DNA of 64,000 nt, taken from a virus. The first letter of the stretch is position 1, and the number at the start of each line of letters is the position of its first letter. The DNA lies in the UHGV virus genome UHGV-1440165; one strand, 5' to 3'. The notes beneath the pieces are model-generated. The model saw only the letters and a program-made list of their open reading frames with translations. It did not search any database and was not told the DNA's origin. The translations under genes were made by a program, and so were the position numbers. Below, piece after piece: positions 6,645 through 58,394 of this stretch.

Positions 6645-7055
6645 ATGAAATTACTGGGTTATTTCCGCGAACTCCCAACAGGCTCTGAAGGCAAGTTGTT
6701 CTCACAGGTGAAGGGGAATGACATCGGTGATACGATGGTTCCCTTGTACACCCGTGACCTTCCTGCTGAAGGTGCCTGGGAGCGTCGTGTTGTCGCTGCT
6801 GCCAACAAATATGGTGATGTGATCGTCGTTGCCGACCGCCACCACAGCCGATTCATGAACAGTCAGCTCAAGATCCTGAAAGAGGCTGGCGTCATTAAAT
6901 CCACCCATACCCGCGAACAGGGCTTCATAGACAACCAGGGCAACTTCCTCACTCGTGAAGAGGCTTGCGTCGTAGCCCGTGAAGCCGGACAGATCAACCA
7001 GGTGCGCCTGAAGACAACCCCATTTCACGAACTCTTTTCCGAAGACCTCTATTGA
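6645..7055 (+). CDS. Hypothetical protein
   Basis: 136-aa ORF coupled to the upstream gene. Confidence 0.45.
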   Translation: MKLLGYFRELPTGSEGKLFSQVKGNDIGDTMVPLYTRDLPAEGAWERRVVAAANKYGDVIVVADRHHSRFMNSQLKILKEAGVIKSTHTREQGFIDNQGNFLTREEACVVAREAGQINQVRLKTTPFHELFSEDLY

Positions 7056-7105: not shown

Positions 7106-7348
7106 ATGAACCCAGAATTTGAAAATCTGTTCGAGCGCTGCTTTGAACCAGGTTCTGTATCCGGTTACATGGACCGCCTTTGCACTGACATTGTAACACG
7201 CCTTGCTGCCAAGGGTATCGTTGTCAACACCATTATTCGCAATGGGAACAACTTTATCTTGCAGATAACCGATTATCGCCACCGCACAGGCATCTTTCAA
7301 GTGTCGTGTGTTGACAACAGCATCATTGAATGGAGACGTTACGCATGA
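7106..7348 (+). CDS. Hypothetical protein
   Basis: 80-aa ORF. Confidence 0.35.
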   Translation: MNPEFENLFERCFEPGSVSGYMDRLCTDIVTRLAAKGIVVNTIIRNGNNFILQITDYRHRTGIFQVSCVDNSIIEWRRYA

Positions 7349-7944
7349 CCACATATGTAATCAACGGCGGCGATTTACTGAAAGCCGCCTGTAGCTTCAA
7401 CCTGATCAACATCTTTGCCCACGGTGCCAACTGCTGGTCTACCATGGGTGCGGGTATCGCCCTACACATCGCCCACAACTTTCCAGCCCTGCGCGAAGCC
7501 GATGCCAACGATCCTCGCGGTCCAGAGCAACGCCTGGGTGGTATGTCCTATGCTTTCGACCACAGCAAAGGTGTCTGGGGCGCGAACCTCTACACTCAGT
7601 TCTATCCAGGTCCGAACGCCCGCATGCCATCTGTCATCAGTTCTGTTCAGATGTTATTCGAGCAGGTGCATGAGATTGTTGAGGCGACCGATGACGAAAC
7701 CGTCTATGTCGGTCTGCCCGCTATCGGCTGTGGCATCGGTGGTCTGAAGCTATTCAGCGTTGTCTGTCAGATCAACAAGGTGGCAGTATCCGTGTTTGAA
7801 GAAACGCGCCGCCGGGTTGTGCCTGTGTTCTACATCCGGGAGGAAGACGGGTTCGATGATGATCTGATGGATCTGTCAGATCTGATTGAAGATGGTATCA
7901 TGATTGTCGAAGATGAGCAAGAAATCATCGACGAGGAGGCGTGA
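7330..7944 (+). CDS. Macro-domain-like protein (putative ADP-ribose binding/hydrolase)
   Basis: INIFAHGANCWSTMGAGIALHIAHNF resembles the macro-domain NAAN...GGG..AI core; acidic C-terminal tail. Confidence 0.45.
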   Translation: METLRMTTYVINGGDLLKAACSFNLINIFAHGANCWSTMGAGIALHIAHNFPALREADANDPRGPEQRLGGMSYAFDHSKGVWGANLYTQFYPGPNARMPSVISSVQMLFEQVHEIVEATDDETVYVGLPAIGCGIGGLKLFSVVCQINKVAVSVFEETRRRVVPVFYIREEDGFDDDLMDLSDLIEDGIMIVEDEQEIIDEEA

Positions 7945-8336
7945 TGCGCAAACCCGTTACCGAGGAGATGCTGGCGAAAGCCGCTCTCCGCCCCAAAGAG
8001 AAGTTTGCATTCTTCCCAGTACGCTTGCATGACGGAAGCTGGATCTGGCTCCAGCCGTATGTTCGTGCTCCTATCGGCCTGTATGCAAACTGCGAGTCCG
8101 ACATTTTCGAATATGCAGCCTTTGCGAGAGGGGAAATCCCTGCTGTAGAAAGGAAGTATACTCTAAAGCAGTATCGAGTTGGCGGTGATTGGGCTGATGA
8201 TGGGGAATACTTTCCACATCGAAACTTCAGAACCTTCGACAACTCATACCAATCCGTGGATTATGCTTCTGAGTTCGGAAGGACTTCACTGCAGATCCTC
8301 TTAGAAAAGGCAGGAGAAATCGATGTACAAGTCTAA
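7941..8336 (+). CDS. Hypothetical protein
   Basis: 131-aa ORF. Confidence 0.4.
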   Translation: MMRKPVTEEMLAKAALRPKEKFAFFPVRLHDGSWIWLQPYVRAPIGLYANCESDIFEYAAFARGEIPAVERKYTLKQYRVGGDWADDGEYFPHRNFRTFDNSYQSVDYASEFGRTSLQILLEKAGEIDVQV

Positions 8337-8955
8337 CTTCCTTGCAGTGGCCGACAGTGAAACCCTGGGGCGCTGGGATGATGCTGTCATGCTGTCATGG
8401 GCGCATACCATCGCAGATCTGACCAAGCGTTATACTCTCCAACAGCTGGTCGAAGAGCGCACGACGTTCATTAAGCTAGACAGCAGAGAACAACTTGAAC
8501 TCGGTCGAGTAAAAGACCAAGGGACGGTTGAATGGTGGTTTGGCACGGGCAAACGCAATCCGTGTGATGCCGCTCGTGCTGTTAGTTTGTTCCCGAGAGA
8601 AGGTGATATCTCTGTCTTCCAGCTGGCTGACGAAATCCGCAAGGGTTGTCATCGTCTTGGGGTGGACCCGCGCTCGGTTGACTGGTGTGATCGTAACTTG
8701 TTCGACCTGCGCAAGGCTCAACACATCATTGAGGTGACGTGCAAGCAGGACTCCAACGAGCCATGGGATTACCACCACACCTTCGACATCGTGAGCTGGC
8801 TGAAGGGCGTTGGGCAGCAGGACCGCTATGCTGGCATCAAGGCATGGGAACTGGAAGGCATGGTCTATCATGATCCTCGTTATGACGCCGCGCTTGACTG
8901 GCTGCGTATTCAGAAGACCATGGAAGATCTGATGGGGCTGGAGGTGAAAGAATGA
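8323..8955 (+). CDS. dexA: DEDDh 3'-5' exonuclease (T4 DexA-like exonuclease A)
   Basis: Exo motif I AVADSETLG, VEWWFGTGKRNP and H-x4-D (HDPRYD) resemble T4 DexA (IIDFETMG ... MEWW). Confidence 0.65.
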   Translation: MYKSNFLAVADSETLGRWDDAVMLSWAHTIADLTKRYTLQQLVEERTTFIKLDSREQLELGRVKDQGTVEWWFGTGKRNPCDAARAVSLFPREGDISVFQLADEIRKGCHRLGVDPRSVDWCDRNLFDLRKAQHIIEVTCKQDSNEPWDYHHTFDIVSWLKGVGQQDRYAGIKAWELEGMVYHDPRYDAALDWLRIQKTMEDLMGLEVKE

Positions 8956-9254
8956 TATTCTTCACAGTTATTGGCGCTATCGTAACAGCTGGGGTGTTCG
9001 CAGCCATATTGGGCTACCTGTACTTCATGTTCCTTCATCCGTTATTTCAGGCGTTCAGTCTCACGAATTGGTACTTGACCTGCCTAAAGGCCGACGGCGG
9101 CGTGAACATGGCCTCTCTTCCTTACTGGCGGCTGGTGGCGCATTACTACACGGTCGGTGGCTGGCCTGGGGAAAGGACATGGAACTCTATCGGTGAGTGG
9201 TATGGAATAGGTCGATGGCGTATATTCCCAGATGATGAAGACAAAGCCCCGTGA
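8952..9254 (+). CDS. Membrane protein, hypothetical
   Basis: Two hydrophobic helices at the N-terminus; 100 aa. Confidence 0.45.
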   Translation: MIFFTVIGAIVTAGVFAAILGYLYFMFLHPLFQAFSLTNWYLTCLKADGGVNMASLPYWRLVAHYYTVGGWPGERTWNSIGEWYGIGRWRIFPDDEDKAP

Positions 9255-9263
9255 GGGGCTTTT
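9245..9263 (+). terminator. Rho-independent terminator
   Basis: agcccc-gtga-ggggct hairpin followed by TTTT. Confidence 0.6.
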
Positions 9264-9317
9264 CTATATCCGGGATAGAGTATCATTGGTTCACCAACGA
9301 ATCCTCGGGAAACTGCT

Positions 9318-9530
9318 ATGACAATCGCAAGAAGTTACAGAAAGAACTTCAACATCGAAGGGATTGAGTTCTATCACCATTATGCTCAGGACGCCCATGG
9401 CACTGTATGTAACACATACATGCTTGACGGTCGTCCTGTGAGTTCAGACGAGTTCCATCGTGTTCTGCGTGAGTCTACAGAAGAATCCCTTCCGTACATC
9501 ATCAACGCCAACGGATTGATTAAACCATGA
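9318..9530 (+). CDS. Hypothetical protein (first gene of coupled operon)
   Basis: 70-aa ORF, stop overlaps next start. Confidence 0.4.
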   Translation: MTIARSYRKNFNIEGIEFYHHYAQDAHGTVCNTYMLDGRPVSSDEFHRVLRESTEESLPYIINANGLIKP

Positions 9531-9823
9531 CAGACAAAGAGATCATTCAGGTGTGCATCAGGCTGAAGACTTTGAAGCCTCTCTTGCAAGCGCTGCGGTT
9601 CAATGCCATTAAGTTTGAGAAACTGCCTCGCACTGCCGCAACGTACTTTGCCATGAAGTCGGTCGGCGGTGCTATCTTCTTCGAGCACGACATTTACTTC
9701 TACACAAAACTGGATGGCAAAGATTTAGATGATATGGTATTTGCCAACGACTCCGGCGACACCATGAAAACGAAAGTTGAAAATGAGCTTCGCCGTATCA
9801 ATGACGGCCTGAGAGGGATGTAA
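9527..9823 (+). CDS. Hypothetical protein
   Basis: 98-aa ORF, translationally coupled. Confidence 0.4.
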   Translation: MTDKEIIQVCIRLKTLKPLLQALRFNAIKFEKLPRTAATYFAMKSVGGAIFFEHDIYFYTKLDGKDLDDMVFANDSGDTMKTKVENELRRINDGLRGM

Positions 9824-10518
9824 TGATCAACGTATCAATAAACGACCGTGATTTCGTTCGCGACGTCCTGACAAACAACAAAGACCCTCTTGCGTACAAT
9901 GGCAAGAAGGTCACCCTGTTTTGGTCCGGCGGCGTGGACAGCACATACATGCTCTTCTGGCTGCTGGCCCATGGGTACGAAGTACACACGATCTATTGCG
10001 AACTGGAGAACAACTTCTTCAAGGTGAAGCGCGAGAACTGGGCACGCAATAAGATCAGGGAATGGGTGACCGCCAATTCACCGAGGTTGAACAATCATTG
10101 GCATCACAGGAAAGAGCCGATCAGCAGAATAAAAATCCCTTCAGGCGATTTCAGGGCATGCCTGGCGCAAGCCCCTTTGTGGTTGGTGAACACGCAATTT
10201 GTAGGCGGAGAGTTCAGCAGAGAGTTGCCAAGAACTTATGTGATGGCATACGTCAACGGTGACGACGCTCTCCACTGGATCCCGGCCTTCAACAAGATCG
10301 TGGAGGGCTATAACATGTTGGCCAAAGACGGGCATGAGATCACCGTTCTCTTCCCTCTCGCCAGCATGAAGAAGACATGGTTCTACGAAGCCCTGTCGCC
10401 AATCTACGGGCTGATGACCTGGTGTGAATATCATGTCCTGAAGAAGAACTGCAAATGTCCCGCCTGCGTTCGTCATCGTCATGAGCTGTCTGTATTCGAG
10501 CAACAGATCTCTAAGTGA
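9823..10518 (+). CDS. queC: QueC-like PP-loop ATPase (7-cyano-7-deazaguanine synthase family)
   Basis: PP-loop SGGVDST, 231 aa, C-terminal Cys cluster CKCPAC (QueC zinc site is C-x-C-x2-C); resembles E. coli QueC N-terminus (VFSGGQDST). Confidence 0.6.
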   Translation: MINVSINDRDFVRDVLTNNKDPLAYNGKKVTLFWSGGVDSTYMLFWLLAHGYEVHTIYCELENNFFKVKRENWARNKIREWVTANSPRLNNHWHHRKEPISRIKIPSGDFRACLAQAPLWLVNTQFVGGEFSRELPRTYVMAYVNGDDALHWIPAFNKIVEGYNMLAKDGHEITVLFPLASMKKTWFYEALSPIYGLMTWCEYHVLKKNCKCPACVRHRHELSVFEQQISK

Positions 10519-10525
10519 GGGTAGC

Positions 10526-10867
10526 ATGAAACCGTCTGTTGTGGTGAATGACATCACTGTGTTGATAAACCTTGTCAAGGATGTGTTCCCACAACAGGTG
10601 GATGCTGAGTATGTGGGGAAGAACGGGAAGTGCTATCAGGTTGCTCTGCTGTTGAAGCACGTGTACCCTGAAGCGGAGATCCATTACAGTCAGATTGAAG
10701 GTCATGTGTATACTCTGATTGATGGGCATTACTACGACATCGACGGCATCCACTTCAGTGTCCCACCAGACACTTGTTTGCTGGAACACAACAGAGGCCA
10801 CAAACCGCATCGCTGGCATAAGGGGTTTGTGAACGTACCGATTTTAGAATGGCTGAGGAAACCATAA
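10526..10867 (+). CDS. Hypothetical His-rich protein
   Basis: ATG 10526 with SD GAGGG upstream; HxxH-rich C-terminus (HNRGHKPHRWH). Confidence 0.4.
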   Translation: MKPSVVVNDITVLINLVKDVFPQQVDAEYVGKNGKCYQVALLLKHVYPEAEIHYSQIEGHVYTLIDGHYYDIDGIHFSVPPDTCLLEHNRGHKPHRWHKGFVNVPILEWLRKP

Positions 10868-11316
10868 TGCACCTGTCACAAATCGAACGGGATGAGATCA
10901 TCACTGCCCTCGAAAAAGAATGGAAATACATGTTCCAGGCCGGGTTCGCTACGCCATTGGTCTCCCGGCTACAGGAAGCGACAGCATATCATTCCAATTC
11001 TCCTTATTACGGAACCCCGAATTCTCTAGAGACCCGCATGAGAATAGAAAGGGAATTGTCTACAATCCTGGAACAATGGTGTGATGAAACTGCGTCCAAG
11101 TACGTACATGTTGCTCACAAATTGTTGGATAAAGATTTGTTCTGGTTAACGGTGGAGGAAGGTGAAGACCGCAACTCGATAGAAATCAAACTTTCACCAA
11201 CCATATTAGAACTATACAACGGAGTGAGTCCGATTAATGTGTTCAATTGGACTAGCTGGTCGGATGCCATGTTGAAGAACGCTTATGACGACCTAGTGAA
11301 GAAAGAGAGGATATAA
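10849..11316 (+). CDS. Hypothetical protein
   Basis: 155-aa ORF in the coupled operon. Confidence 0.45.
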
Positions 11317-11876
11317 TGGCAGGAATTGTAAAGTACCTGGGCGACCCTCACCTTGGGCACAAGAAAATCTTCAAGCCCCGTGGATTCGATACCCAAGAGG
11401 CGCACGATGCTGCAGTCATCGATACGATCTTTCAGGGGCTGAAGTCCCGGGATGTACTGGAACTCGCAGGTGACATCTGCTTCATCGGGGCTGAGGGGTT
11501 CATCCGTCTGATGCGCGAGGGTGCCAAGCGGAATATCGACGAGTTTAAGCGCCGCCCGGTTCCCGATGATTGGCGTCCGAACTTTATCATCAGGGTGGCA
11601 CAGGGCAACCATGACAGCTTCAAGATGTTGTTGCAGCTGTATCAAGAGGGATGGATTAGCTCCTTCGGTGCCATGTACGAGCGTGACACTTCGGTTGGTC
11701 GTGTGTTGACGACGCACGTCCCTTATCAATTAGACCGCTGGGCGTATAATATCCATGGACATCTTCATGACAAACTCCGTGAAGAACGTGAATACCTGAA
11801 CTGCAGCTGGGAACAATTCAAGCGTCCCGTGACGCTGGCCGAGCTGCTCTATACCAATCTGGGGATTGAATTATGA
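11316..11876 (+). CDS. Calcineurin-like metallophosphoesterase
   Basis: Motifs GDPHLGH, QGNHD, HGHLHD. Confidence 0.6.
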
Positions 11877-12259
11877 CACAAAAAGTTCTTTTGAAGGTCT
11901 ATGTTGGAAAGGGTGAGAAGATCACCTTCGACAAGGCCGAATCCTACAAGCAAACGCCAAAGTTGCTGAAGGATATTGTCTTCAACTGTGATCGTTATGG
12001 CGACCGCTACCCGAACAAACAGGTTCGGATCGAAGACATGATGAAATTTAACGTCGGTTTTAGCAGTTCCCCTTCTTCTGGCTGCGTGTATTGCTTTGAA
12101 GAAGATCTCGAAGAGGCCAAGAAAATCTTGGTGGATGTCATCAACAAGCGCGTCCAGGGCATGCTTAACCGTTTTAAATTCGATGTTGAAGAGCATAACC
12201 GACAGACAGCAAACGCTGAAGGTGTGCAACGGATCAAGCTGGAGTGGGAGATTTTATGA
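11873..12259 (+). CDS. Hypothetical protein
   Basis: 128-aa ORF, coupled. Confidence 0.45.
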
Positions 12260-12627
12260 TCATTGCAGTGGATTTTGATGGGACTTGTGTAACCCACGAG
12301 TACCCAAAGATCGGGCGGGACATCGGTGCTGATGCCTGCCTGAAGAGGCTCTTTGCCAAAGGGCATCAGCTGATTTTGTTCACGATGCGTTCTGGTGCGG
12401 AATTGGAGCAAGCGAAAACATGGTTCCATGTCCGTGGCATCCCTCTGTATGGAGTTAATACAAACCCATCGCAGAAGACTTGGACGGAGTCTCCAAAGGC
12501 ATATGCCCAGGTTTACATCGATGACGCCGCTCTTGGCTGTCCTCTGATATGGGATGAAGTTTCCAATCGCCCCTACGTGAACTGGCCAGAGGTGGAACGC
12601 ATGTTGAAGAAGAGAGATATATTATGA
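12256..12627 (+). CDS. HAD-superfamily phosphatase-like protein
   Basis: HAD motif I DFDGT, motif IV YIDDAALG; ATG 12256 overlaps upstream stop (ATGA). Confidence 0.55.
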   Translation: MIIAVDFDGTCVTHEYPKIGRDIGADACLKRLFAKGHQLILFTMRSGAELEQAKTWFHVRGIPLYGVNTNPSQKTWTESPKAYAQVYIDDAALGCPLIWDEVSNRPYVNWPEVERMLKKRDIL

Positions 12628-12962
12628 AAAAGCCGCGCATCACAGGACATCAACTCTTTGTTCTTTGCGGGATAGAGAACTTTGAGAAAGGTCATCGCCG
12701 TTATGGTGAATGGTACTTGCATCCCAAGTCCTGGGCCAATGACAAGGGAAACACCGTCTGGACTTTCCAGGTATGTGCGAACGCTGGTGGGTTCACCTCC
12801 GTCAAAGGCGACCCATGGGATACCCGCACTGGGGCTTCCCTGTTGGCCAAGGGTCTGATCGAACCAGCTGGCTCGATGGTCCATGACGGTTCGTATGCGA
12901 ACTGGCCGAACACTGAGGTGACGTTCTACCGTCTGACCGAACTCGGCAAGTCTTACCTCTGA
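12624..12962 (+). CDS. Hypothetical protein (last gene of operon)
   Basis: 112-aa ORF followed by a terminator. Confidence 0.45.
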   Translation: MKKPRITGHQLFVLCGIENFEKGHRRYGEWYLHPKSWANDKGNTVWTFQVCANAGGFTSVKGDPWDTRTGASLLAKGLIEPAGSMVHDGSYANWPNTEVTFYRLTELGKSYL

Positions 12963-12986
12963 ATAAAGAATTAGCGGTTATTGAAG

Positions 12987-13010
12987 AAGGGGGAGTATAT
13001 ACTTCCCCTT
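12987..13010 (+). terminator. Terminator hairpin
   Basis: aaggggg-agtatatact-tcccctt stem-loop followed by T-rich sequence. Confidence 0.5.
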
Positions 13011-13032
13011 AGTTTATTAAGAGGAACAGGAA

Positions 13033-13380
13033 ATGACCCCATTAAAAGATATGTACGAGCGCCTTGCTGAACTGCAGGCGAAGGAAAAGCGCTTCTCTGA
13101 GGAAGAGGCAGAGTTATCCGAGCTGAATGCTCTGATCGCCACTCGTGAGAAGTATCTTCAACGTTACATCAACCACCCACCTCACATTGTTGAGCGTGTG
13201 AACGTTGAACTGGAAACCCTGTCCCCAATCACGTATGATAAATTGGGTATGGATAAAGTCCACACGGCTATCTCTGGTGTTGTGAACTCTATGGTGGCGT
13301 TGGGGCAGGTATTTGGTCGCGCCGACCATGACGACCTGTTGTTCTACATAGAACGAAACGTGAGGTTGGACCGCCCATGA
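13033..13380 (+). CDS. Hypothetical protein
   Basis: 115-aa ORF. Confidence 0.45.
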   Translation: MTPLKDMYERLAELQAKEKRFSEEEAELSELNALIATREKYLQRYINHPPHIVERVNVELETLSPITYDKLGMDKVHTAISGVVNSMVALGQVFGRADHDDLLFYIERNVRLDRP

Positions 13381-13877
13381 TTAAGCCTCGTATGATGTTT
13401 GCGCATATGCGCTCGGCTCATGCATACGCTCTGTCCAGCTATGCTCAGCGCCTGAAGGTTGGCTGTGTTATCGTTGACCCAAATATTGACCAACCTGTTG
13501 CCATCGGCTGGAATGGAACCGCCCCCGGCGCTCCCAATGTATGTGAGCAGGAAATAGACGGTCAGCTGGTAAGTCTTGAAAGTGTTATCCATGCTGAAGA
13601 GAACGCTCTGGATAATATCCAAAAGGCTCGCATCGGGCTTGTGATGTTCGTGACGCACAGCCCCTGCCCAAGATGTACGAAAAAGATAATCGAAAGTGGC
13701 AATATCGACAAGGTGTTCTACAACGTTCCGTACCGCATTACAGACGGTATTGTTGAGATGATGAACGCTGGGATTGAAGTTTACCGTATGGTCGACCAAT
13801 ACGCCGTCGCCAGACATTGTTTTGACGCTGAAGGCAAATTAATATCCGTTCCGGTTTTATTGAACCCTGACAAGTAA
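13377..13877 (+). CDS. cd: dCMP deaminase (T4 cd-like)
   Basis: Zinc-binding HAEENA and PCPRCTKK motifs of the cytidine/dCMP deaminase family. Confidence 0.8.
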   Translation: MIKPRMMFAHMRSAHAYALSSYAQRLKVGCVIVDPNIDQPVAIGWNGTAPGAPNVCEQEIDGQLVSLESVIHAEENALDNIQKARIGLVMFVTHSPCPRCTKKIIESGNIDKVFYNVPYRITDGIVEMMNAGIEVYRMVDQYAVARHCFDAEGKLISVPVLLNPDK

Positions 13878-13887
13878 GGAATTTATC

Positions 13888-14295
13888 ATGCGTTATGTAG
13901 ATCGTATGCTCGGCAAAGACGAGCACGTTATTGCCTTCACCCGCCCGACCTGGTGGAGCGGCTTCTGGATGTATGTGCTGGTTGTGCTGCTGTTTGTGCC
14001 AACCTTCGGTGTCAGTCTGTTGTTCCTGATTCCGACTGTGCTGAACGTGTTGACCACTGAATTCGCTGTGACCAACAAGCGTGTAATCGTCAAGCGCGGG
14101 TTCATCCGTCGTGATGCCGACGAACTGCGGATTGGTAAGGTTGAAACAGTGAAGGTCGATCAGTCCATCACAGGCCGCATCCTGGGCTTCTCGACCATCA
14201 GTGTGATCGGTACGGGTGGCACTCGCCTACTGGCCACGGGTTGTGCTGGCGGTAATGCCTTCCGCCAGAAGATCTATGACCACCTGGACGACTGA
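13888..14295 (+). CDS. Membrane-anchored protein, bacterial PH-domain (YdbT/DUF304-like) candidate
   Basis: N-terminal two TM helices then a beta-rich domain; motif-level call only. Confidence 0.4.
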   Translation: MRYVDRMLGKDEHVIAFTRPTWWSGFWMYVLVVLLFVPTFGVSLLFLIPTVLNVLTTEFAVTNKRVIVKRGFIRRDADELRIGKVETVKVDQSITGRILGFSTISVIGTGGTRLLATGCAGGNAFRQKIYDHLDD

Positions 14296-14297
14296 TT

Positions 14298-14510
14298 ATG
14301 ATTACTTCAGGTTACACCATTGACCTGTATTGTGAATGCTCTGACTGCAAGTCATGCAGCTGGGCTTGGGAAGAGCATCACCCCAAGTGTGGGTTCAAAC
14401 AATACGCTGGTGAGACTTGGGGTGAGTGTGTCAGACAGGCACGGGCTGATGGTTGGCAAATCGGGCGTGACAGGCATACCTGTTACGCCCCTGGGCACAA
14501 AAGAAGTTAG
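14298..14510 (+). CDS. Small Cys-rich protein, hypothetical
   Basis: 70 aa with CECSDCKSC ... HPKC ... HTC. Confidence 0.35.
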   Translation: MITSGYTIDLYCECSDCKSCSWAWEEHHPKCGFKQYAGETWGECVRQARADGWQIGRDRHTCYAPGHKRS

Positions 14511-37894: not shown

Positions 37895-38842
37895 GTGGAA
37901 GACTATCGCAATTTCATCACCCAATTGTTGCAGCGCGGGATATCGCGGAAGAACCGTTTCCGCGTCACCATCCCCCTGCCACCGGGCGTGTTCGATTCAA
38001 ACGCCACCCTGAGCAATGACGGGGATGCTTACAAATCAAGTTCATCATCGTTTGGCGACTTGTTTAAGGAGTCAGCCCGTATTGTAAACGCTTTCTTTGG
38101 AGGGACAAACCAGACGGCGCGTTCCCTTCAGATGATGTGTATGGTCGCAGGTCTGCCGGGGGTCGGCGTCGACACCACCCCAATGAACAACAACGGCAAC
38201 CACATCAAGATGCCAAACAACAAGTCCAACGTCGATCTGGATCTAACATTCCTCATTGCCAACGACTACTATGAGAAGTCGGTCATGGACAAATGGAAGA
38301 ATCTGATCTTTGATCCGTACACAACTAAGATGGGTTATTACGAAGACTTCGTGACTGACATCTGTATCGAGCAGATGGATACAGAAGACCAGGTTGTGCA
38401 CCGGGTGTACATCGTGGAGGCGCATCCGATCAACTTCAGCACGATTGACCTTGACAAGGGTGCAACAGATCAGTTCAACCAATACAACATCACATTCTCT
38501 TACAACAAAGTGTTATCGGAGACTGAGTATGAAACACGCAGCCTTGCCAGCGATTTTCTTCCTCTTGGGATTACTGACGCTCTTGCCAGTGGAGATTGGG
38601 AAACTGCGGCCTCAAAAGCCGGGCAACTTTATCGCAAGGTGAAGGAAGGCAACTTCACAGGGGAAGCGCTCCTGGCGTACAAGCAGCTGGATCAACTGGT
38701 AAACAATCTGGCTGGCATCAGCCTGCAGGACTTCGAGCGCATCTCTATCGGCATCTCTCGTGACATCATGGGGAATGATAACCTGACTGCAGCTGAAAAG
38801 ACCAGCCTGCTGGGTATCCTCCAGGACGTCATGGGCAAATAA
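37895..38842 (+). CDS. Baseplate/tail structural protein candidate (gp53/gp54/gp48-like?)
   Basis: 315 aa; N-terminus RKNRFRVTIPLPPG resembles the tail-tube-family start; late-promoter motif upstream. Confidence 0.4.
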   Translation: MEDYRNFITQLLQRGISRKNRFRVTIPLPPGVFDSNATLSNDGDAYKSSSSSFGDLFKESARIVNAFFGGTNQTARSLQMMCMVAGLPGVGVDTTPMNNNGNHIKMPNNKSNVDLDLTFLIANDYYEKSVMDKWKNLIFDPYTTKMGYYEDFVTDICIEQMDTEDQVVHRVYIVEAHPINFSTIDLDKGATDQFNQYNITFSYNKVLSETEYETRSLASDFLPLGITDALASGDWETAASKAGQLYRKVKEGNFTGEALLAYKQLDQLVNNLAGISLQDFERISIGISRDIMGNDNLTAAEKTSLLGILQDVMGK

Positions 38843-38844
38843 AA

Positions 38845-38863
38845 AGCCCCTCACGGGGCTTTG
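38845..38863. terminator. Bidirectional terminator between convergent genes
   Basis: agcccc-tcac-ggggct hairpin flanked by an A run upstream and T-rich sequence downstream. Confidence 0.55.
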
Positions 38864-58322: not shown

Positions 58323-58394
58323 TGGATCTCTCCTCGGGGATTTAGATGTAATTAGCCCCCGGAGGGGCTTTATTCTGTTCAAGACCAGCTAGTT

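Follow-up and report, generated by a model that had tools for sequence, protein, structure and literature searches.

Positions 9318-12962 of the virus genome UHGV-1440165, of which one strand of 64,000 nucleotides (the window) was analysed, hold nine short plus-strand genes, g1–g9. This block most probably represents an accessory slot prone to gene shuffling, bordered by fixed hairpins and filled with small genes that are translationally coupled but functionally independent and of which four belong to recognisable enzyme families. Judged by its genome matches, the window comes from an Agtrevirus-like (ViI-like) Ackermannviridae phage and not from T4. The T4 context of an earlier, sequence-only reading of the stretch was not borne out: the first 25 kb of the window matches Ackermannviridae genomes, best of all those of the Agtrevirus Salmonella phage pSal-SNUABM-02 (95.5% identity over 83%) and of Yersinia phage CAU_YEP3. 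According to the annotation of relatives, the block has the dexA exonuclease gene on one side and the dCMP deaminase gene on the other, in a long plus-strand gene chain that follows the topoisomerase II genes.

The syntenic slot was compared among 17 Ackermannviridae, representing seven genera or groups, by searching it with the nine block proteins. Fifteen distinct presence/absence patterns emerged from the 17 related loci, the largest overlap of any relative with the block being six of its nine genes. A collection of 50,697 phage records contains none that covers at least 80% of the block. The individual genes have unequal ranges, with 24 to 543 records per gene (Table 1), and deletion scars are found in five relatives. 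In pSal-SNUABM-02, which is 99.1% identical across g6–g9, g1–g5 are absent and the scar consists of the last 40 codons of g5 (locus L003, 4047-4166). Det7 has g2–g5 and a g6 reduced to a 15% remnant, RC-2014 has g7–g9 and a g6 reduced to a 13% remnant, and both remnants retain 96–100% identity. The g6 copy of EspM4VN (locus L001, 7728-8231) is devoid of metal motif I. Finally, in LIMEstone1 the block and the dexA region are gone, and what remains is a fragment of about half of g9 (locus L009, 7403-7579) together with the right hairpin. Because 15 patterns occur in 17 loci, the ranges are unequal, the flanks are conserved and deletion scars are present, the block qualifies as a hyperplastic accessory region; variable content between conserved syntenic flanks is the signature of such a region and not of a co-inherited pathway.

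Hyperplastic regions bordered by terminator/promoter cassettes, termed PeSLs, have been described in T4-type phages (Arbiol et al. 2010, PMC2839356; Comeau et al. 2014, PMC4122927). As in those regions, small, mostly uncharacterized and non-essential genes lie between core genes, single genes are inserted, deleted or replaced, and stem-loops mark the borders. The present slot differs in belonging to Ackermannviridae, in having hairpins at its two borders only and in that its inner genes abut without intergenic cassettes.

Taken as an accessory slot, the block would be part of the early-region plus-strand gene chain. Its left border consists of the gene for the dexA exonuclease, a small ORF (open reading frame) for a membrane protein and a hairpin with a GNRA loop, and its right border of another hairpin, followed by an ORF of 115 aa and the gene for dCMP deaminase. 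Since the stop and start codons of the genes, which are packed head to tail, overlap, translational coupling may ensure their co-expression from read-through or upstream transcription. Comparison with the relatives shows that single genes are gained, lost and replaced by recombination and deletion. The nine genes would each have a function of their own instead of contributing successive steps to a common pathway.

Architecture and borders of the block

The sequence-only reading had described nine chained plus-strand genes between two hairpins, and this description is upheld by the coordinates, overlaps and folding energies, with three start codons amended. All nine ORFs were verified. The start of g4 was moved to 10526 (from 10481), that of g5 to 10867 (from 10849) and that of g8 to the ATG at 12256 (from the GTG at 12244), on the basis of homologue lengths, PHROG alignment ranges and Shine–Dalgarno-like sequences. 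With the revised starts, the genes are joined by stop/start overlaps of one base (TAATG/TGATG) or four bases (ATGA), the sole exception being g3/g4, which are separated by a 7-base gap. The term ‘terminator-bracketed operon’ remains a structural description, referring to strand, overlaps and flanking hairpins, and the block is putative as a transcription unit.

Table 1. Genes, border hairpins and conserved flanks of the block, with the distribution of each gene in the 17 related loci and in the phage-record collection
Feature	Position	Strand	Description	Related loci	Phage records
Left flank, conserved	8323-9254	+	DexA-like exonuclease gene 8323-8955; 100-aa hydrophobic ORF 8952-9254; from tblastn and the relatives' annotation		
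Left border hairpin, terminator-like	9243-9265	+	AAAGCCCC-GTGA-GGGGCTTT at 9243-9262, then TCT		
g1	9318-9530	+	70 aa; phrog_16682, no assigned function	7/17	
g2	9527-9823	+	98 aa; phrog_9302, no assigned function	2/17 (full-length), remnant in EspM4VN	101, all named Salmonella or Escherichia phages
g3	9823-10518	+	231 aa; orphan QueC-family PP-loop ATP pyrophosphatase, C-terminal Cys cluster; phrog_1550	10/17	196
g4	10526-10867	+	113 aa; Pfam Phage_YunG-like; the ‘His-rich’ protein of the sequence-only reading	9/17	222, also Vibrio and other non-Ackermannviridae phages
g5	10867-11316	+	149 aa; phrog_17979, no assigned function	2/17	37
g6	11316-11876	+	186 aa; small calcineurin-type metallophosphoesterase; phrog_547	13/17	543, including T5-like phages
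g7	11873-12259	+	128 aa; phrog_36114, no assigned function	4/17	24
g8	12256-12627	+	123 aa; capless HAD-type phosphatase, BT0820-related	8/17	205, also crAss-like, Enterococcus, Aeromonas and Ralstonia phages
g9	12624-12962	+	112 aa; phrog_4677, conserved, observed only in Ackermannviridae, no assigned function	14/17	266
Right border hairpin, terminator-like	12987-13010	+	AAGGGGGAGT-ATAT-ACTTCCCCTT		
Right flank, conserved	13033-13877	+	115-aa ORF 13033-13380; dCMP deaminase gene 13377-13877		

The left hairpin, in the loop of which lies the stop codon of the preceding 100-aa ORF, has a folding energy of -16.0 kcal/mol (z = -2.55 versus shuffled sequences), and the right hairpin, with 10 pairs, one of -16.6 kcal/mol (z = -2.77). 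A generic terminator scan of positions 8000-14500 gave no enrichment over shuffles (6 found, 5.5 expected), and the left hairpin was not among its matches. Genomes of three genera, Agtrevirus, Kuttervirus and Taipeivirus, keep both hairpins at matching positions. The left one is conserved in 11 relatives, and its loop variants (GTGA, GAAA and GTAA) all stay within the GNRA consensus. The right one is conserved in 12 relatives, including the block-less LIMEstone1, with both one-sided and two-sided changes in the stem; in the Taipeivirus hairpins the stem is maintained through changed pairs. The motif of the left hairpin, GCCCCGNRAGGGGCTTTT, has three matches in the window (0 expected). Besides the border copy, GCCCCG-NRA-GGGGCTTT is found at 38842-38859 on the minus strand and at 58355-58372 on the plus strand, one of these two copies being exact and the other having two mismatches; it has the look of the standard intrinsic terminator used by this phage. 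On the minus strand inside g3 (9883-9912), the scan also reports a terminator-like hairpin of 11 pairs with a T-run, which is probably fortuitous because no minus-strand gene ends there.

No sigma-70-like promoter was detected at the scan threshold in the gap between the left hairpin and g1 (9264-9317), and a MotA-box-like reading of GGGGCTTTTC was dropped as unsupported. A TATCAT/TATTAT hexamer is located about 18 bases past the left hairpin (...TAGAGTATCATTG...) and is conserved across Agtrevirus, Kuttervirus and Taipeivirus. It is a candidate for the -10 element of a combined terminator and promoter, and nothing matching a -35 element was seen near it in positions 9264-9290 or in the aligned relatives. 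Compared with the promoter of a PeSL, the slot has just this hexamer downstream of its left hairpin.

The flanks are mosaic as well. The upstream 100-aa ORF is 92% identical to its copy in ZQ1 and 33–57% identical to those of other relatives, and the dCMP deaminase displays 92% identity to the ChubbyThor copy and 65–75% to most others. Further upstream, ORFs 6645-7055 and 7330-7944 correspond by position and size to the Arn.3-like and Tk.4/macro-domain (ADP-ribose-binding) genes of relatives; they are possible further accessory genes of host-takeover or anti-defence interest.

Proteins encoded in the block

The motifs quoted in the sequence-only reading, SGGVDS, GDPHLGH/GNHD/HGHLH and DFDGT, are all found in the encoded proteins, and the three enzyme calls based on them, a QueC-like PP-loop protein, a calcineurin-type metallophosphoesterase and a HAD-like phosphatase, are confirmed by the searches described below. 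The first of these, g3, matches phrog_1550 (‘QueC-like’) over its full length (2e-73). Its match to Pfam QueC (29 bits, cut-off 22) is limited to the PP-loop stretch, residues 32-64, and its score against TIGR00364 (20 bits) is below the cut-off of 150. A confident AlphaFold2 model computed with 20 homologues (pLDDT 81, pTM 0.85) has a PP-loop ATP pyrophosphatase fold. Among the structures that Foldseek retrieved with it, TtuA has the best E-value and Cap9 the best TM-score (0.52/0.63), and QueC is matched as well. The g3 family profile aligns over the full length with B. subtilis QueC (3bl5, 4.7e-9) and with Cap9 (9nto_B, 2.3e-8). A profile search of 1.84 billion cluster representatives yielded 1,147 relatives at E ≤0.001; in a sample, all 61 matched phrog_1550 and 58 of the 61 matched Pfam QueC. 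In the phage collection, phrog_1550 occurs in large and jumbo phages.

The PP-loop of g3, S35-G-G-V-D-S40, is invariant in the 20 homologues. The C-terminal cysteine cluster, C201-x8-C210-x-C212-x2-C215, has one spacing shorter than the zinc motif of QueC, C(x)8CxxCxxC, and is a putative metal-binding site; the consensus of the wider phage QueC-like family in this region is CE-x7-CGxCxPC. QueC activity depends on the motifs YxQxHxxE, VPxRN and YPDC, with Y35, R99 and Y131 being essential (Libby et al. 2026). In the profile alignment to 3bl5, g3 has none of the three motifs. The corresponding positions in the g3 family read approximately i-k-n-n-e-e-k-t, l-k-Q-v and s-y-l-e-d (W152-I-P in g3), with no equivalents of the His, Arg or Asp-Cys residues. 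Since the three activity motifs are not conserved, g3 is best classified, by sequence, as a true member of the QueC superfamily that is not a preQ0 synthase.

The genomic context of g3 is also unlike that of QueC. As the sequence-only reading had noted for the window, other queuosine genes are absent, and this holds as far as it was checked: the CAU_YEP3 annotation lists no FolE, QueD, QueE or DpdA over some 50 kb, part of which corresponds to the first 24 kb of the window while the rest extends past it. Three distant homologues of g3 sit among small uncharacterized ORFs in large phage contigs; no que genes are found nearby and tblastn detects none of the other eight block proteins at these loci. 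In two of the three metagenomic contigs, a DUF4326 (PF14216) gene lies directly or two genes upstream of the QueC-like gene (locus L019, 2563-2904; locus L021, 1156-1479) and may be a recurrent neighbour of such genes; no DUF4326 match is present among the nine block proteins. As for defence systems, PADLOC matches g3 weakly and to its generic QueC model alone (24 bits, N-terminal 55 residues), and the block proteins neighbouring g3 include no CD-NTase, QatA, QatB or QatD, being phage accessory genes instead. Protein g3 is like QueC, Cap9 and QatC in its SGGxDS PP-loop, overall fold, P-L-x3-K element and C-terminal CE...C.C..C cluster, and differs from them in the missing YxQxHxxE, VPxRN and YPDC motifs, in the absence of queD/queE, CD-NTase or QatA/B/D neighbours and in being encoded by a virulent phage. 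By its family, g3 would be an ATP-dependent PP-loop enzyme, probably adenylating a carboxylate or carbonyl substrate. Given that g3 lacks the substrate motifs of QueC and that genes for a precursor were not seen, this substrate is probably not 7-carboxy-7-deazaguanine.

The g3 family itself has been encountered before. Hutinet et al. 2019 (PMC6884629) set aside a QueC-like singleton of Kuttervirus ECML-4 as likely belonging to another subfamily of N-type ATP pyrophosphatases. Compared with this Kuttervirus protein (ECML-4 YP_009101458, CBA120 orf028, Det7 gp140; phrog_1550), g3 is 65% identical over 96% of the length and occupies the same genome position. It represents the Agtrevirus-type orthologue, 88–90% identical to the copies of EspM4VN and CAU_YEP3, and displays no material difference from the Kuttervirus protein. 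A single peptide of the g3 orthologue was recovered in the proteomics of Sajous1 (PMC10892097), weak evidence that the gene is expressed.

The protein g4 had been listed in the sequence-only reading as a His-rich 113-aa protein without a recognisable motif. Pfam places it in the YunG-like family. Modelling predicts that g4 adopts a minimal fold of the transglutaminase/papain-like kind, in which three invariant residues, C36, H60 and D71, may form a Cys-His-Asp trio, and in fold comparison the model resembles protein glutaminases, deamidases and LapG-type proteases. By this assignment, g4 would be a small thiol enzyme of a class whose hallmark is a Cys opening a helix that packs on a sheet bearing His and Asp. 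Neither the g4 nor the g9 profile matched any solved structure, and PADLOC gave no match to g4.

The two phosphoesterases, g6 and g8, belong to separate families. Protein g6 matches phrog_547 (5e-43) and has five metal-binding motifs, GDPHLGH, AGDICF, QGNHD, THVP and HGHLH, of which the last four are invariant in all seven aligned homologues; GDxH is present in the six full-length copies and missing from the truncated EspM4VN copy. These motifs identify it as a calcineurin-type metallophosphoesterase, presumably acting with two metal ions, to judge from family membership. It scores below the threshold for Pfam Metallophos, the sequence alone matches no solved structure, and the g6 profile has a weak, marginal match to Aquifex aq_1665 (PDB 1xm7). 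In its size (~186 aa) and five calcineurin-type motifs, g6 is like aq_1665 and the phage proteins of phrog_547, including those of T5-like phages, which are labelled ‘Ser/Thr protein phosphatase’. With respect to protein-phosphatase activity, the public name of g6, ‘putative Ser/Thr phosphatase’, is a mere annotation habit.

Protein g8 matches the BT0820 family (NF046079; 3e-25) and PDB 2obb (2e-15 over 100 residues). It contains DFDGT, corresponding to the DxDxT nucleophile motif, and YIDDAA with the C-terminal DD, and it is as small and capless as the BT0820 HAD phosphatase (2obb). Its score, 89 bits, stays below the NCBIfam equivalog cut-off of 165 bits, so that g8 is better regarded as a BT0820 homologue that is not necessarily isofunctional. 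It would function as a small HAD phosphomonoesterase, and ‘phosphoheptose isomerase’, the label it carries in public records, is a misnomer. Literature searches on BT0820 and YunG returned nothing useful, and no substrate was found for BT0820. A gene of crAss-like Bacteroides phages annotated as ‘polynucleotide kinase/phosphatase’ encodes a protein about 52% identical to g8; this similarity hints that the g8 family might act on 3'-phosphate ends of nucleic acids rather than on sugars. The nearby dCMP deaminase gene had raised the idea that g6 or g8 serves as a dTMP or nucleotide phosphatase of an hmdU phage; as a firm claim this was rejected, both genes being missing in several relatives that keep the deaminase.

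For the remaining proteins, g1, g2, g5, g7 and g9, Pfam and NCBIfam scans gave nothing, the sole PADLOC match is a weak one of g7 to DUF2290, and PHROGs place each of them in a family of unknown function. The C-terminal pattern of g9 (SLLAKGLIEP...FYRLTELG) resembles a winged helix and may represent one. These five phage-restricted proteins would most plausibly be accessories of host takeover or counter-defence.

Alternatives to independent accessory genes

Several points weigh against the accessory-slot interpretation. Tight translational coupling of all nine genes also fits a true operon. Furthermore, g3 and g4 lie side by side in every locus that has both (7 of the 17), most relatives carry g6 and g9, and some genes are inherited together in the majority of cases. 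Functional independence is itself deduced from distribution, and five of the nine proteins lack an assignable activity. A smaller functional pair or trio could thus be embedded in the block.

The alternative that survives best, and which we nevertheless consider unlikely, is that g3 and the adjacent g4, possibly with g6 and g9, form a core module. They might act together as a conjugating–deconjugating pair for proteins or nucleobases, directed against the deazaguanylation immunity of the QueC family (QatABCD, type IV CBASS), or they might modify a host target. Indeed, g3 and g4 are neighbours not only in the window but also in EspM4VN, CAU_YEP3, SW16-7, ChubbyThor, CBA120 and Det7. Moreover, the g3 family profile matches Cap9, the best structural hit by TM-score, nearly as well as QueC, and QueC-family defence enzymes conjugate deazaguanine to protein N-termini (PMC13329287). 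Given the resemblance of the g4 model to protein glutaminases, deamidases and LapG-type proteases, the modelled Cap9/QueC-like adenylating fold and thiol-enzyme fold could in principle both act on proteins. However, the two genes also occur separately: g4 is found without g3 in Ag3, SKML-39 and ZQ1, as well as in phages outside Ackermannviridae, whereas g3 is found without g4 in 0507-KN2-1, IME250, phiEa2809, KNP4 and the three distant metagenomic loci. The PADLOC results, a weak generic QueC match for g3 and none for g4, also speak against a defence-related pair.

A further, more novel proposal is that g3 is a counter-defence or host-modifying enzyme that applies QueC/Cap9-type adenylation to a new substrate, possibly in partnership with g4 in Agtrevirus and Kuttervirus. 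The two might, for instance, imitate, inhibit or undo the protein deazaguanylation of QatABCD or type IV CBASS. We regard this proposal as quite doubtful.

In the sequence-only reading, the nine genes looked like one pathway for nucleotide or nucleic-acid base modification or like a single anti-defence system. On such a view, substrate activation would fall to the PP-loop enzyme and the processing of phosphorylated intermediates to the two phosphoesterases. Co-orientation and translational coupling of the nine genes between two hairpins agree with that view, as do the three enzymes acting on nucleotides or phosphate esters and the proximity of a dCMP deaminase gene in a phage family with hypermodified thymidine. 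It is nonetheless highly improbable, being contradicted by comparative genomics: none of the 17 relatives has all nine genes, each of the 15 patterns is a different subset, near-identical phages do without five of the nine, and whole genera are block-less. Also against it, the canonical QueC substrate motifs are absent from g3; FolE, QueD, QueE and DpdA are not annotated in the CAU_YEP3 stretch; and 5-NeOmdU, the hypermodified base known for this phage family, is made by kinases, an aGPT-Pplase and a PLP decarboxylase whose genes lie outside the block. The biosynthesis of 5-NeOmdU has been reconstituted from ViI gp67, gp160, gp226, gp243 and gp247, enzymes that include hmU-DNA kinases, aGPT-Pplase and a PLP-dependent decarboxylase (PMC8989533). 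A link between the block and this pathway was rejected because the published set comprises other genes and other enzyme classes (PMC8989533). For individual genes of the accessory slot, an anti-defence or host-takeover role is compatible with the data.

Implications for Ackermannviridae phages

Parts of this locus are already known: public records name ‘QueC-like’, ‘Ser/Thr phosphatase’ and ‘phosphoheptose isomerase’ genes, and the orphan QueC-like protein has been noted in the literature. The exact combination of nine genes is new, with no record holding all of them, yet it is one more arrangement of a known variable locus, and a new nine-gene modification pathway does not hold as posed. What the present analysis adds are the revised start codons, the borders of the slot and its deletion scars, the separation of g3 from true QueC at the level of motifs and the hypothesis of a catalytic triad in the YunG-like family, which thereby becomes testable. 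The orphan QueC-like family, found widely among large phages, is of interest now that paralogues of QueC are emerging in anti-phage defence. Relatives of the window phage provide natural knock-outs that can be used for phenotype comparison, namely, pSal-SNUABM-02 (no g1–g5), Det7 (no phosphoesterase) and LIMEstone1 (no block). Ackermannviridae-type phages are used in biocontrol and therapy, and the roles of their accessory genes are therefore of some practical interest. Overall, the slot offers a clear case of gene-by-gene shuffling in Ackermannviridae.

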